Positions 306-4,508 of a DNA stretch of 4,508 bases are shown here, one piece after another. The number at the start of each line of letters is the position of its first letter. Positions within the stretch are counted from its first letter, which is position 1. The notes under the pieces are model-generated. The model was given only the letters and a program-made list of their open reading frames with translations. It did not search any database and was not told the origin of the DNA. The position numbers were made by a program, and so were the translations under genes. The DNA comes from a virus (lineage: Duplodnaviria; Heunggongvirae; Uroviricota; Caudoviricetes): the IMG/VR virus record IMGVR_UViG_2671180986_000011, one strand, 5' to 3'.

Positions 306-728
306 TCACAGTATCGCCTCCTGAAAATTACCCTGATAGAAAGCCAGTACACGCTGCATAGCTTCGCTCTTCCGGCACTCGCGACAGATTATATTCAGGC
401 GCCTGTCGTAGCGGCGTATTTCTCCGTCAGGTAATGACCAGATAAGGTCCGGATCAACAACAACCGGTTTCCTCACCTTTACTCTCGAGAGTTTTTTGCG
501 GGCGCTTTGCCAGTCCTTGCGAGCCTGTTCAGACGGGAATAAGCCGTAGCCAGAATTATATACATCACCACTTGCGACCAGTTCTATGCATAAGCGACCG
601 ACAGACGCACGACTGATACCTGTTTCATCTGACAACTGCCGAATCGTGACCCGACCGTCCTGATGCACGAGTTCCACAATTCGCGTCTTCAGTTCTTCCC
701 GCTGTTCGGGAGTAAAAGGTTTCGCCAT
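306..728 (-). CDS. Hypothetical lambdoid prophage protein, 140 aa, with an N-terminal HTH-like segment; occupies the position of Rac ydaW downstream of the DnaC-like gene
   Basis: Complete ORF in the track. ATG at 728 preceded by AGGAGG (spacer 4). Begins 14 nt after the stop of the upstream DnaC-like gene. Segment RQLSDETGISRASVGRLCIELVASGDV looks like a winged-HTH; a CxxC pair lies near the C-terminus. Confidence 0.7.
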   Translation of the reverse strand: MAKPFTPEQREELKTRIVELVHQDGRVTIRQLSDETGISRASVGRLCIELVASGDVYNSGYGLFPSEQARKDWQSARKKLSRVKVRKPVVVDPDLIWSLPDGEIRRYDRRLNIICRECRKSEAMQRVLAFYQGNFQEAIL

Positions 729-742
729 AAATCCTCCTGAAA

Positions 743-1489
743 CTACTTAACAACCCTCGAATGGCTAACATTCGGACGCCAGCTCTCCCAGTTAAAATTC
801 ACCCAGCGCCCGCCGTTCATGACCATGCGATCCATCACCCGCTCGCCGAGCAATGTTTTCATCACCTCATAGTTCAGGTTTGTCAGCATCCCCACGCTGC
901 GCATCGACGCTGTCCGGCGATCAACAATCTGGTGCAGCACCACCTGCTCGTTTTTCGTCTCGCGCTGAATGCCAATTTCATCAAGAACCAGCAGATCCAC
1001 TTCGCACAGCTCCCGCAAAAATTTTTCGCCTGACTGCCCGTCGTCATAGCTGGCGTGCAGGGCGCTCATAACATCAGCCACGGTAACCACAATCACTGTC
1101 TGACCGTCTTTCAGCAGGCGATTCCCGATAGCTGCCGCTAAGTGATTCTTCCCGGTACCAGGTTTTCCGCTGAACGCAAAATTTGTACACCCGGTCATCA
1201 GTTCATCGGCGATGGATTTCGCCTGGCTTAACGCGTATCGCTGGCCGTCGTTCTGCACCTGGTAATTCGCAAACGAGCATTTACGGTGCAACGGCTGGAT
1301 GCCTGAGCGATTCAGAATTTTTTCCACCCGCAACTGGCGATTCAGGCGGTTGATCTCCTCGCTACGTTTCTGGCCTTCAGCAAGTTGCCACTCGCGCCAC
1401 TCCGCTACCGTTCTGAATGGGGCGGTTACATGTGGCGGGGTCAGTCGGCGGATGCGTTCCAGAACGCCGCCTGTCGCAATATTTTTCAT
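743..1489 (-). CDS. ydaV: DnaC-like replicative helicase loader (AAA+ ATPase), phage P-protein analogue
   Basis: 248-aa ORF. Walker A FSGKPGTGKNHLAAAIG and Walker B DLLVLDEIG are read directly from the translation. The C-terminal half resembles E. coli DnaC and Rac YdaV from memory. ATG at 1489 with a GGGGG SD 7 nt upstream, overlapping the stop of the upstream gene. Confidence 0.9.
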   Translation of the reverse strand: MKNIATGGVLERIRRLTPPHVTAPFRTVAEWREWQLAEGQKRSEEINRLNRQLRVEKILNRSGIQPLHRKCSFANYQVQNDGQRYALSQAKSIADELMTGCTNFAFSGKPGTGKNHLAAAIGNRLLKDGQTVIVVTVADVMSALHASYDDGQSGEKFLRELCEVDLLVLDEIGIQRETKNEQVVLHQIVDRRTASMRSVGMLTNLNYEVMKTLLGERVMDRMVMNGGRWVNFNWESWRPNVSHSRVVK

Positions 1490-1495
1490 GGTCCG

Positions 1496-2346
1496 TTACC
1501 CCCTGAAGCCTGGCGGGATCGCACTGTCCGGCAACGAGACGGTGTTAACCTGTCGGAGCAACGTCTCAGGCCGAACACCTTTCGGCGCGAACAGGCCCTG
1601 GTATTCATTGGCGATGCTGTGTCGAATCACCTGCTCAGGTGTAAAACCCTGCTGACGGAATTTTTCCAGTTCCCGTATCGCCCCGTTAGCGCCCTGCTCC
1701 GTTCGAATCGGTTTTCGCAATGCCTGTCTGAACCGGACCCACTCATGCCAGAGTGTTTCCGGCAACCAATCGGGCAGCTCAATAGCCTCCGGCTCGAATT
1801 TTTTAGACGCTCGTTTTTGGCGAGGGGGAGATCAGTATTTAGATCTTCCTCTTCCTCTTCCTCTTCCTCTTCCTCTTCCTCTTCCTCTTCCTCTTCCTCT
1901 TCCTCTTCCTCTTCCTCTTCCTCTTCCTCTTCCTCTTCCTCTTCCTCTTCCTCTTCCTCTTCCTCTTCCTCTTCCTCTTCCTCTTCCTCTTCCTCTTCCT
2001 CTTCCTCTTCCTCTTCCTCTTCCTCTTCCTCTTCCTCTTCCTCTTCCTCTTCCTCTTCCTCTTCCTCTTCCTCTTCCTNNNNNNNNNNNNNNNNNNNNNN
2101 NNNNNNNNNNNNNNNNNNNNNNNNNNNNNNNNNNNNNNNNNNNNNNNNNNNNNNNNNNNNNNNNNNNNNNNNNNNNNNNNNNNNNNNNNNNNNNNNNNNN
2201 GCCCAGAAGCGAATAACCTTCCCTAATGCGGCATCTGGATCAATATTCAGAATCTCAGNNNNNNNNNNNNNNNNNNNNNNNNNNNNNNNNNATATTTCCG
2301 GCTTATCCGGCGTAATAACCTCGAGCTTTATCCAGTTTGAAGCCAT
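1496..2346 (-). CDS. ydaU: YdaU-like phage replication protein (lambda O position), interrupted: N-terminal and C-terminal parts are in different frames, separated by a hexamer repeat and N runs
   Basis: ATG at 2346 with AAGGTG SD (spacer 7); N-terminus MASNWIKLEVITPDKPEI, then EILNIDPDAALGKVIRFW across a 33-nt N block. The C-terminal part, in another frame, is open from 1831 to the TAA at 1496-1498 (...SPPRQKRASKKFEPEAIELPDWLPETLWHEWVRFRQALRKPIRTEQGANGAIRELEKFRQQGFTPEQVIRHSIANEYQGLF...). The middle is (CTTCCT)n plus Ns. Family assignment is from memory of Rac YdaU. Confidence 0.6.
1845..2078. repeat. Perfect tandem hexanucleotide repeat (CTTCCT)x39, polypyrimidine on + strand, truncated by an N run
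   Basis: 234 nt of uninterrupted CTTCCT units, read directly. AGATCT sits at the left junction (1841-1846). On the minus strand it is (AGGAAG)n, read as poly-Glu in the frame of the YdaU-like N-terminus. Confidence 0.95.
2079..2200. other. Run of 122 N (gap or masked sequence) inside the YdaU-like gene
   Basis: Literal n characters; length is not a multiple of 3. Confidence 0.99.
2259..2291. other. Run of 33 N inside the YdaU-like N-terminal region
   Basis: Literal n characters; the frame is preserved across it (11 codons). Confidence 0.99.
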
Positions 2347-2360
2347 TTGTTTTCACCTTG

Positions 2361-2379
2361 TAACGCTCGCAGCGTTACA
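2361..2379 (-). other. Perfect hairpin/inverted repeat (8-bp stem, 3-nt loop) in the ydaT-ydaU intercistronic region
   Basis: GTAACGCT-CGC-AGCGTTAC. On the minus-strand transcript it ends immediately 5' of the AAGGTG SD of the YdaU-like gene. No U-tract follows on either strand, so it is not a typical intrinsic terminator. Confidence 0.4.
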
Positions 2380-2423
2380 TTTAACTGATACCGAACAAAA
2401 CAATCCGGCACGATTAATTTCAA

Positions 2424-2845
2424 TCAATGCACTACGACAGAATCGCCGGGCGACCCACCACCGCTGAAATGTGCTTTCCGGTAAACGGCCTGGACAGCAT
2501 CATCATGCGCATCAATTGCCGTACTCAACGCTTCCTGCGCCGCCAGTAATGCACGGCGTTCCAGGGTATCGAAGATACAGAGTCGGTGACGCAGCTCACG
2601 CGGAAGAATTGCCAGAACCGCAGGGATCAGTTTCTGAATTTTTTCCCTTTGCGCTTTCGTTTCACCTTTCAACCAACGGTGATAGATATTCTGCTGATTG
2701 TTCCAGTCCTTGCCTGGTACCAGAGACAATTCGCCGCCCCCCTGCCGCAGATATTCTTCAGTAATTGCGTTAGCGACCCACGCCTGCCCTTTTTCGGCTG
2801 CCAGGGCAACAGCACTGATTCGATGTGCTCATGCCTGATTTTCAT
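2424..2845 (-). CDS. ydaT: YdaT-like protein (position of lambda cII, downstream of cro-like gene), apparently disrupted by a 1-nt frameshift near 2807-2812
   Basis: ATG at 2845 with GGAAGGTG SD gives MKIRHEHIESV in one frame, which then degenerates and stops at 2669-2671. The protein-like ORF ending at the TGA at 2424-2426 (...ALAAEKGQAWVANAITEEYLRQGGGELSLVPGKDWNNQQNIYHRWLKGETKAQREKIQKLIPAVLAILPRELRHRLCIFDTLERRALLAAQEALSTAIDAHDDAVQAVYRKAHFSGGGSPGDSVVVH) is in the adjacent frame and has no ATG before the TTG at 2729. Joining the two frames reproduces the YdaT N-terminus I recall. Confidence 0.6.
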
Positions 2846-3056
2846 GAATCACCTTCCAAGGTCGTTTTGCCTTACGATATTCGTCATAAACTTTGGGGTC
2901 GTACTGAAGTTCCCCGCCAGATGCCTCTTGCAGGCGCATCGCGCGACCTTCAGGAACCAGTTCCCCCCATGCAGCAATGCTTGCCAGCCTAACTCCTGCG
3001 GCATTGGCAAGCTTTGTTTTGCTGCCAAAAANNNNNNNNNNNNNNNNNNNNNNNNN
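2829..3056 (-). CDS. dicC: Cro-like DNA-binding regulator, DicC-like; C-terminal 66 aa visible, N-terminus (about 9 aa) hidden in the N run; start coordinate estimated
   Basis: Manual minus-strand translation of 3029..2832: FGSKTKLANAAGVRLASIAAWGELVPEGRAMRLQEASGGELQYDPKVYDEYRKAKRPWKVIHENQA, stop TGA at 2829-2831. It closely matches the E. coli Qin DicC sequence as I recall it. The ORF track lists a different frame (2849..3490), which is spurious here. Confidence 0.75.
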   Translation of the reverse strand, partial: XXXXXXXXXFGSKTKLANAAGVRLASIAAWGELVPEGRAMRLQEASGGELQYDPKVYDEYRKAKRPWKVIHENQA

Positions 3057-3310
3057 NNNNNNNNNNNNNNNNNNNNNNNNNNNNNNNNNNNNNNNNNNNN
3101 NNNNNNNNNNNNNNNNNNNNNNNNNNNNNNNNNNNNNNNNNNNNNNNNNNNNNNNNNNNNNNNNNNNNNNNNNNNNNNNNNNNNNNNNNNNNNNNNNNNN
3201 NNNNNNNNNNNNNNNNNNNNNNNNNNNNNNNNNNNNNNNNNNNNNNNNNNNNNNNNNNNNNNNNNNNNNNNNNNNNNNNNNNNNNNNNNNNNNNNNNNNN
3301 NNNNNNNNNN
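3032..3310. other. Run of 279 N covering the dicC start, the divergent dicC/dicA promoter-operator region and the N-terminal HTH of DicA
   Basis: Literal n characters. Confidence 0.99.
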
Positions 3311-3603
3311 AAAGAGATGAAACACAGCCGGCGGGGAAAAGATTATTCGCACTGAGCCAAGCGCTTCAGTGCTCACCGACTTGGCTTCTTTTTGGGGATG
3401 AAGATAAACAACCAGGCGAACCGATCCCGGATAATCAGCCAGCCATTCTGACAGAAGATCAAAAAGAGTTACTTCAACTGTTCGACGCACTGCCTGAGTC
3501 AGAGCAAAAGGCCCTGTTGTCAGAGATGCGTGCTCGAGTTGAAAATTTCAACAAACTTTTTGAAGAACTACTCAAAGCTCGCAAAAGAAGCGCAAACAAA
3601 TAA
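3190..3603 (+). CDS. dicA: DicA-like XRE/CI-family repressor; C-terminal 96 aa visible from 3313, N-terminal HTH hidden in Ns; start estimated from the 135-aa DicA length
   Basis: Visible translation RDETQPAGKRLFALSQALQCSPTWLLFGDEDKQPGEPIPDNQPAILTEDQKELLQLFDALPESEQKALLSEMRARVENFNKLFEELLKARKRSANK, stop TAA at 3601-3603. Strong resemblance to the DicA C-terminal half as recalled (..GKNLFALSKVLQCSPTWILFGDEDKQP..MRARVKNFNKLFEELLKAR..). Divergent from the dicC-like gene. Confidence 0.85.
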   Translation, partial: XXXXXXXXXXXXXXXXXXXXXXXXXXXXXXXXXXXXXXXXXRDETQPAGKRLFALSQALQCSPTWLLFGDEDKQPGEPIPDNQPAILTEDQKELLQLFDALPESEQKALLSEMRARVENFNKLFEELLKARKRSANK

Positions 3604-3675
3604 TCCCCTTTTTTCTCCACACCCTGTAATAAAAAGCACAAACTTTCAAACAATTGTGTTTTTTACATCAAAAAA

Positions 3676-3728
3676 CTTAGGTTTTTCTACACAAAAATCT
3701 TGACCGCCCACCTTAGGTTATTCTAAAT
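3676..3728 (+). promoter_or_regulatory. Candidate promoter/operator for the ydfA operon: TTGACC -35-like hexamer flanked by two 14-nt direct repeats
   Basis: CTTAGGTTTTTCTA (3676-3689) and CTTAGGTTATTCTA (3712-3725) match at 13/14. TTGACC lies at 3700-3705 with a weak -10 candidate (TCTAAA/CTAAAT) about 17 nt downstream. Located in the 202-nt gap between dicA-like and ydfA-like. Confidence 0.3.
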
Positions 3729-3805
3729 TTCATTCATCAAGACACCGCACGGTGTTCTCAGCAAACAGTTCCGCTACCCCGGCGTTAAGGGGAAATGGGG
3801 TCAAC

Positions 3806-3961
3806 ATGAATACTATCGATCTTGGCAACAACGAATCTCTGGTGTACGGCGTGTTCCCCAACCAGGACGGCACATTCACCGCCATGACGTATACCAAAAG
3901 CAAAACGTTTAAAACCGAAGCTGGCGCACGTCGTTGGTTGGGAAGACATTCAGGTGAGTAA
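3806..3961 (+). CDS. ydfA: Small prophage protein, YdfA-like, 51 aa
   Basis: ATG at 3806 with AAGGGGAAATGGGG SD upstream: MNTIDLGNNESLVYGVFPNQDGTFTAMTYTKSKTFKTEAGARRWLGRHSGE, stop TAA at 3959-3961. The track's longer ORF starts at GTG 3752 with no SD. Position immediately downstream of dicA matches Qin. Confidence 0.7.
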   Translation: MNTIDLGNNESLVYGVFPNQDGTFTAMTYTKSKTFKTEAGARRWLGRHSGE

Positions 3962-3962
3962 A

Positions 3963-4166
3963 ATGAACGAGACAGAATTAAAACACGTTATCGCTCTACT
4001 CCTAGAAGATGCAAAACGCCTCCAGCAACTGGAGCCAAATGCAGGCACTGGGGCACGCATCTGGCTGGCTAAAGAAGCGCTGGAATCTGGCGATTATGAT
4101 AGCGAAGAAGCCTTCTACAAAGCAGAAGGCCGTGCAGGATATTCACCGGGTCTTGGCGGGGTATAA
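3963..4166 (+). CDS. Small prophage protein in the YdfB position, 67 aa, with a Gly-rich C-terminal tail
   Basis: ATG at 3963, one nt after the ydfA-like TAA, with AGGTGA SD: MNETELKHVIALLLEDAKRLQQLEPNAGTGARIWLAKEALESGDYDSEEAFYKAEGRAGYSPGLGGV. The 3' end overlaps the convergent minus-strand gene by 24 nt. Confidence 0.55.
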   Translation: MNETELKHVIALLLEDAKRLQQLEPNAGTGARIWLAKEALESGDYDSEEAFYKAEGRAGYSPGLGGV

Positions 4167-4439
4167 ATACCATGCGCATTGACTGAATTCGCAAACAAAA
4201 ACAGACGCGCGATACCTGGATAGTCGGTCTGCATAGTCAGATATCTGGCTGCGAATTTGATAAATATCACCGCCCTTTTCGGAAACATAAGTTCCGTCCG
4301 GGAGTTGATTATACGAACCATCTCCATGGGGGATCGTTCTCCTGAATCCTAGTGAGAGCATATATTTATGAAGCCCTTCGTAATCCTCTGGCTCAGCATT
4401 ATATAGTTCTACTCTGGCGAGATACGTTGGCATATTCAT
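4143..4439 (-). CDS. Hypothetical protein of unknown function, 96-98 aa, convergent to the dicA operon
   Basis: Complete ORF. Starts ATG-AAT-ATG (4439 or 4433), with AAGGA 1 nt before the first ATG and 7 nt before the second. Translation MNMPTYLARVELYNAEPEDYEGLHKYMLSLGFRRTIPHGDGSYNQLPDGTYVSEKGGDIYQIRSQISDYADRLSRYRASVFVCEFSQCAWYLYPAKTR. No hydrophobic TM segment or signal peptide. I do not recognise the family. Confidence 0.65.
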   Translation of the reverse strand: MNMPTYLARVELYNAEPEDYEGLHKYMLSLGFRRTIPHGDGSYNQLPDGTYVSEKGGDIYQIRSQISDYADRLSRYRASVFVCEFSQCAWYLYPAKTR

Positions 4440-4508
4440 TTCCTTACTGGTTGTGTGAGAACTTCAGTAAAGATACCACTGAGGTAGCCTGAGTTTAACG
4501 GACACTCC
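4436..4508 (-). CDS. Possible 3' end of an upstream minus-strand gene entering from the right edge, overlapping the next gene's start (ATGA)
   Basis: The minus frame is open from the window edge to the TGA at 4438-4436 (..ECPLNSGYLSGIFTEVLTQPVRK*). This TGA overlaps the ATG at 4439-4437 as ATGA, a common coupling arrangement. Only 23 codons are visible, so this is weak on its own. Confidence 0.35.
   Translation of the reverse strand, partial: ECPLNSGYLSGIFTEVLTQPVRK

Follow-up and report, generated by a model that had tools for sequence, protein, structure and literature searches.

The hexanucleotide array found within the ydaU-like replication-initiator gene of this prophage sequence is an already known VNTR, and with a probability of about 85% its length of 39 copies reflects an artefact of assembly or gap filling and not biology. 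The window, i.e. the whole stretch of 4,508 nt that was analysed, is a gapped draft scaffold from a Rac-like lambdoid prophage. It is nearly identical to Shigella sonnei 53G and has a 10-nt deletion in a flank that no complete E. coli genome matched without an indel; these two facts point to S. sonnei or a very close relative as its source. The features of the window are collected in Table 1.

In the window, a perfect period-6 run of 235 nt, composed of only C and T on the plus strand, was recognized by direct inspection as well as by TRF. The (CTTCCT)x39 part occupies exactly positions 1845-2078 (100% matches, TRF score 470) and is immediately followed by 122 N. The coding strand of the array reads (GAG GAA)n, and one frame of the minus strand gives 78 consecutive Glu residues followed by DLNTDLPL. 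The preliminary description had reported the perfect array with the adjoining 122 N inside a replication-initiator gene, together with a Glu run of about 78 residues, and both were reproduced here with recomputed positions; the 33-N and 279-N runs were found in addition to the N run given there. A perfect hexamer of 39 units cannot have originated by chance, and the copy number displayed in the window is probably inflated.

Table 1. Positions of the annotated features in the window, with strand and supporting evidence where given.
Feature	Position	Strand	Evidence
DUF977 gene	306-728	-	
ydaV, DnaC-like helicase loader/ATPase (Pfam IstB_IS21/Bac_DnaA), immediately downstream of the initiator gene	743-1489	-	Pfam
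ydaU-like prophage replication-initiator gene, PHROG 2509; frameshifted pseudogene with two gaps	1496-2346	-	ORFs, PHROG match, phage annotation
Junction of the 10-nt deletion (ATTTAGGGGG, between two G5 runs) relative to intact alleles	~1824-1829	-	left-flank comparison, translations
AGATCT: Asp-Leu codons (GAT CTA) and neighbouring bases after the Glu run, motif EEE-DLNTDLP	1841-1846	-	relatives, translation
Hexamer array, (CTTCCT)x39 on the plus strand, (GAG GAA)n coding; VNTR locus SS10	1844-2078	-	TRF, translation, relatives, primer mapping
Scaffold gap, 122 N; replaces 293 nt of unique coding sequence of 53G including the SS10 primer site and two palindromes	2079-2200		
Second scaffold gap, 33 N; replaces 9 nt (CAAGCCTGA) of otherwise identical 53G	2259-2291		
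ydaT	2424-2729	-	ORF
Third scaffold gap, 279 N; replaces 216 nt of 53G, cro/dicC - dicA intergenic and operator region	3032-3310		
dicA/cI-like repressor, C-terminal part	3311-3603	+	
DUF1391 gene		+	

Read from its sequence, the window is an immunity/replication module of a Rac-like lambdoid prophage, and it has the gene order dicA, dicC-ydaT-ydaU-ydaV in common with Rac. The gene carrying the array is annotated as ydaU in phage Rac and as 'DNA replication protein O' in induced E. coli phages, and the window DNA is 92-94% identical to the ydaU of phage Rac and to these induced phages. The intact allele of an E. coli locus (L002) matched phrog_2509, 'replication initiation protein', over its full length (residues 1-262, E=1.2e-89), and its N-terminal and C-terminal halves each matched other initiator, O-like and primosomal PHROGs. 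The ydaU-type initiator identity proposed in the preliminary description is thus upheld by the phage annotation and by PHROG 2509, and the initiator function of the protein is predicted at annotation level. No Pfam domain was found in the intact allele, and a Foldseek comparison of the AlphaFold2 model with the PDB gave nothing at E<0.1, with faint winged-helix-like matches only and no structural family assigned. The replication-module reading of the locus is supported by ydaV, which adjoins the initiator gene. In comparison to Rac YdaU, the gene of the window is a pseudogene with a 10-nt deletion, is split by two assembly gaps and is without a Pfam domain. Its N-terminal domain starts at 2346, the frame is shifted after DLNTDLPL, and the C-terminal domain is left as an out-of-frame ORF at 1496-1765.

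Compared with the intact 140-aa allele of an E. coli locus (L004), the ydaT gene (2424-2851) has lost 1 nt at window 2808, and what remains is an ORF of 101 aa that starts with TTG. This lesion, shared with S. sonnei 53G, is a second indication that the prophage module is decaying. Many complete genomes of S. sonnei (L003, L007 and L009-L012) have the N-terminal part of ydaU interrupted at about window 2214/2215 by an IS3-family element, which neither the window nor 53G carries. A stretch of about 500 nt at 3977-4477 with two small ORFs is missing from the S. sonnei complete genomes fetched and was found at 99.5% identity in the E. coli loci L002 and L004. The final 31 nt (4478-4508) recur beside IS copies in Shigella loci, and hence the scaffold probably ends at an IS boundary. 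By exact look-up, the 98-aa product of the ORF at 4143-4439 (minus strand) matched only the chromosome of S. Typhi CT18, inside a related Rac-like prophage whose ydaU homologue is intact (262 aa); BLAST did not place CT18 as the closest relative. An imperfect direct repeat of 23 nt (GTTTTTTACATCAAAAAACTTAG x1.9) at 3658-3701 and CTTAGGTT-type motifs at about 3640-3740 follow downstream of the dicA-like gene. Similar CCTAAG/CTTAGG motifs occur in the cro-dicA intergenic region, which lies under the 279-N gap (216 nt in 53G). These motifs and the 23-nt repeat may be repressor operators arranged as in OL/OR.

The repeat itself is native to the gene. Fifteen related loci were fetched, and in all of them the repeat occurs at the identical codon of the ydaU-like gene. 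Arrays were measured in 12 loci, two of which were E. coli sequences found by DNA similarity while the other ten were obtained by exact look-up of the YdaV protein of the window. These ten are mostly IS-rich chromosomes of S. sonnei type, including 53G (HE616528, locus L008). The arrays were 19, 25, 37, 43 or 49 nt in length (3.2-8.2 copies), and in all 12 loci they lay between a left-hand TTAGATCT and a right-hand CTGGTAACGC. The preliminary description had considered an array of 234 nt highly atypical for enterobacterial coding DNA. The repeat as such is not foreign to the gene: the comparison with ydaU homologues, which that description had proposed, showed the hexamer array at this codon in the 12 measured relatives too, with 3-8 copies instead of 39.

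The repeat is translated in the relatives as QKALP-(E)n-DLNTDLP, and the Glu run has 3-10 residues across 120 cluster representatives of the family. An alignment of 37 sequences from several enterobacterial genera (52-96% identity) showed that L136 and P137 are invariant and the acidic run following them is nearly so, sometimes with Asp or with interruptions (e.g. LPDEDEEEE and LPEEELEEE). Since the codons and interruptions of this Glu/Asp-rich run differ between genera while the run itself persists, selection appears to act on the peptide and not on the DNA. The AlphaFold2 model built on the same alignment has two confidently folded helical domains (residues ~10-95 and ~161-240), and the segment 123-160 between them, which contains the Glu run, has a pLDDT of ~31. 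From this model and the conservation pattern, the repeat probably encodes part of a flexible acidic inter-domain linker, the length of which would vary by two-residue steps. A second in-frame length polymorphism of the gene, a T6 versus T9 run (KSSKKR versus KSSKKKR), was noticed between E. coli FDAARGOS_944 (L002 ~3075) and S. sonnei 53G (L008 ~3470-3480), within the segment which is hidden in the window.

The locus could be assigned to a published typing scheme. The forward primer of SS10 is ACGGTGGGCTTTCTCTACCT (Table 1 of PMC3420240, after Liang et al. 2007), and it has an exact single match in 53G at L008 3448-3467 (plus strand), 135 nt from the array and aimed at it. The array of 53G (L008 3602-3646) has period 6 by TRF and is the sole period-6 tandem repeat within 1 kb. 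The primer was also found in L001, L002 and L004-L006, which are the loci retaining that segment; in the window its site falls under the 122-N run, and it is therefore seen in relatives only. None of the other six MLVA forward primers had a site in these related loci. The hexamer strings gave no match when sought in the MLVA literature, and the locus was identified by primer mapping. Judged from the forward primer, the 6-bp unit and the array position, the hexamer array of the window is taken to be the SS10 locus, an already known VNTR. Published typing of 1,672 isolates from 50 countries describes SS10 with a 6-bp unit and nine alleles of 2-10 copies, the ranges being 2-10, 3-8 and 0/3-8 copies in the three clonal groups (PMC3310650). 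Thus, the unit size and the primer placement agree with SS10, and the 3-7 copies of the complete genomes are inside the published 2-10, whereas the window with its 39 copies is at about four times the published maximum and has its primer site hidden by Ns. This disagreement is taken as evidence about the assembly and not about the identity of the locus. Moreover, the coding hexanucleotide VNTRs used in the MLVA schemes of E. coli O157 and Shigella likewise have an in-frame 6-bp unit, are variable by slippage and serve as epidemiological markers. They sit in prophage-borne or hypothetical genes, as is the case here, and no substantive difference from them was noticed.

The rarity of long arrays at this position was studied with a BLAST query made of the left flank and the whole array, by which records were ranked according to their own array extent. 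The left flank was matched by 621 complete E. coli genomes, and their longest array measured 51 nt (8 copies), followed by 33 and 27 nt. The left anchor with 10 copies had no match in 185,579 species-representative genomes, JGI metagenome contigs and IMG/VR, and 10 copies with the right anchor had none in the species-representative genomes and the JGI metagenome contigs. Alleles designed on the 53G backbone were found by exact look-up with 3, 4 and 5 copies in 1, 21 and 11 contigs, respectively, named S. sonnei. Designed alleles of 6-12 and of ~39 copies were not found by this look-up, and since it also missed the 7-copy product of 53G itself, the missing longer alleles carry little weight.

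These figures bear on the reading in which the isolate truly carries an SS10 allele of at least 39 copies, with a Glu tract of at least 78 residues produced by slippage in a pseudogene, and the assembler left a gap behind it. SS10 is a genuine slippage-prone VNTR, and S. sonnei VNTRs with 7-bp units do reach 30-34 copies, although none of its 6-bp loci exceeds 18 copies and SS10 stays at 10 copies or below in the 1,672 isolates typed (PMC3310650). The gene is already inactivated by the 10-nt deletion, so that selection against a long Glu tract would be relaxed and its cost little; yet the maximum was 8 copies in the 621 complete E. coli genomes and the Shigella genomes examined, and an array of at least 10 copies with its flank was absent from three large contig collections (two for the right anchor). 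A true array longer than the reads would likewise end in an assembly gap. Short reads, on the other hand, cannot determine exactly 39 units, and the number itself is thus without support. On balance, and in view of the interval lengths considered below, a real expansion of this size is very unlikely.

The gaps of the scaffold bear on how the array arose. The window is 100% identical to S. sonnei 53G at 189-1843, 2201-2258 and 2292-3031, and it differs from 53G at two positions in 3311-3976. The runs of 122, 33 and 279 N stand in for 293, 9 and 216 nt of 53G, respectively. As their lengths differ from 53G despite identical flanks, the N runs are to be read as gap-size estimates and not as length-preserving masks. 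Masking of the latter kind was rejected as the origin of the Ns, because their lengths differ in both directions from the 53G sequence replaced. Three hidden indels as the cause of the mismatch would be implausible, the flanks being identical to 53G. The Ns resemble gap sizes that were estimated from paired ends between very small contigs, and one of these contigs has only 58 nt.

The array ends at 2078 and the Ns begin at 2079, and the window is without the CTGGTAACGC junction, which each of the 12 measured relatives has. Because the gap begins directly at the end of the array, its right-hand junction was never observed; with this junction missing, the repeat was at no point spanned by the assembly, and a count of 39 units cannot come from short reads. 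The array and the Ns together measure 235 + 122 = 357 nt in the window in comparison to 43 + 293 = 336 nt in 53G, an excess of 21 nt, which agrees with the other two gaps, where the N runs exceed the 53G sequence by 24 and 63 nt. If the array of 235 nt was real and the 293 hidden nt were added, the interval would be 528 nt and the gap would be underestimated by 171 nt, which is in the opposite direction to the other gaps. The interval arithmetic hence fits a gap of roughly correct total size that was partly filled by a run-on repeat, and it does not fit a real expansion.

Similar errors are documented for the gap-closing programs GapCloser, GapFiller and Sealer (PMC10265787). In one example GapCloser returned 7.9 copies in place of the true 2.9, and in an E. 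coli simulation 75-100% of the wrongly closed gaps of each tool involved tandem repeats (PMC10265787). The window shares with these errors a tandem repeat at the gap edge and a copy excess over relatives, and it further resembles them in having a perfect array which ends in Ns and a total interval which is roughly preserved. In the published example the overestimate was 2.7-fold for a 69-bp unit; for the 6-bp unit of the window it would be about 5-10-fold. For the copy number, the assembly or scaffolding artefact which the preliminary description had offered as an alternative is favoured by the position at a gap edge, by the interval arithmetic and by the 3-8 copies of the relatives.

The sequence of events can be proposed as follows. 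The copy number of the locus would change by replication slippage in steps of 6 nt, equal to two Glu residues, and the reading frame is kept because of this step size. The true allele of the isolate would probably be of a few to about ten copies and longer than the k-mer of the assembler. A short-read assembler or gap filler then most likely entered the gap from the left contig edge by cycling through the repeat, and the remainder of the estimated gap would have been left as 122 N.

The preliminary description had further noted that the gene is out of frame across the array and the Ns. The C-terminal part (ORF 1496-1765) is indeed in a frame different from the Glu/DLNTDLP frame, but the block is not the cause of the shift. 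The array cannot cause a frameshift because its length changes in multiples of 6. The intact alleles of 262 aa (L002, L004 and L006) read GGCGAGGGGG-ATTTAGGGGG-AGATCAG, and the 10 nt ATTTAGGGGG are missing from the window, as they are from L003, L005 and L007-L012 of S. sonnei. This deletion lies just 3' of the array on the coding strand and shifts the frame after DLNTDLPL, leading in 53G with its 7 repeat units to a 224-aa product without the C-terminal domain; the deletion-bearing S. sonnei genomes have only 3-7 repeat copies. A homologue search with the frameshifted tail of S. sonnei gave no hit at E<=1e-10, a result that tells little. The frameshift is due to the lineage-specific 10-nt deletion, separate from the repeat. 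None of the 621 complete E. coli genomes matching the left flank had the ATTTAGGGGG deletion, their best identity being 95.6%, and the deletion is therefore a possible lineage marker. E. coli 2013C-4974 has independently lost a single nucleotide from this G run, and its gene is annotated as frameshifted.

The AGATCT at the left edge of the array had been regarded as marking a junction, and a non-biological insertion or edit of another kind can be imagined from it, namely a BglII cloning or vector junction, a chimeric read, or deliberate masking or editing. The perfection of the array, its place beside Ns and the practice of N-masking some stretches in sequence collections would agree with such an event. 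AGATCT and the first repeat units are nevertheless native in 12/12 loci, where they encode E-D-L, and the window does not differ from S. sonnei 53G in the flank leading up to the array. The N runs, moreover, deviate both ways from the lengths they replace, as expected for gap estimates and not for masks. The AGATCT is thus a pair of native Asp-Leu codons with neighbouring bases, and its role as a cloning or assembly junction was rejected. An insertion or edit of this type is extremely improbable.

A functional role of the array as a DNA element, either as a triplex (H-DNA) replication barrier or as part of the phage origin in the initiator gene, was also weighed. The array had been described as a polypurine/polypyrimidine mirror repeat. 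The first half of this description stands, as the tract is 100% pyrimidine on the plus strand, but the mirror symmetry does not: no centre gives a mirror identity above 67%, and TCCTTC, the unit read backwards, cannot be obtained by rotating CTTCCT. As the tract is not mirror-symmetric, the H-DNA argument is weakened, and mirror-repeat H-DNA was rejected since the canonical symmetry is lacking at 67%. Natural alleles of the array are, in addition, only 19-51 nt long, and the Glu/Asp run is kept across genera by different codons, which indicates selection on the peptide.

In lambda, the origin lies inside gene O, and iterons of this type are several direct repeats of about 18-20 bp, set close together beside an A/T-rich region and bound by the initiator. 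In the relatives, the segment under the 122 N is 293 nt of ordinary coding sequence with two dispersed 19-nt palindromes, and the collapsed iterons suspected there by the preliminary description are not found. The palindrome (GTAACGC-N5-GCGTTAC) is present in three copies in 14/15 fetched loci and in two copies in L007, and among its carriers are Rac-type phages and the prophage of S. Typhi CT18. Of the three copies, one closely precedes the ydaU-like start codon and two are in the gene, ~190-210 nt apart. The site seen in the window is at 2360-2378, and those of 53G are at L008 3157-3175, 3349-3367 and 3559-3577. Both in-gene copies fall under the 122-N gap of the window, and one of them is ~25 nt from the Glu repeat. 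Compared with iterons of the lambda type, the hexamer array is coding Glu sequence and not a set of iterons, and the palindromes are dispersed and not tandem. The palindromes are plausible candidate binding sites for the initiator or a regulator, and possibly they form a candidate prophage origin; they may also have contributed to the assembly break. The proximity of one conserved palindrome, the pyrimidine tract and the precedent of lambda are compatible with the array being a functional DNA element, but with the missing mirror symmetry, the short natural alleles and the selection on the peptide this is extremely unlikely.

This study suggests that repeat lengths or in-silico MLVA types read from gapped short-read scaffolds can be far off at VNTRs, and that a perfect array which ends in Ns should not be counted as an allele. 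The locus is an established epidemiological marker; its biological weight is small and its striking length is probably not real. If an allele of at least 39 units was true, it would have about fourfold the size of the largest allele among the 1,672 S. sonnei isolates typed, and would represent a runaway expansion of a coding microsatellite after frameshift inactivation, i.e. a modest curiosity in a decaying prophage gene.
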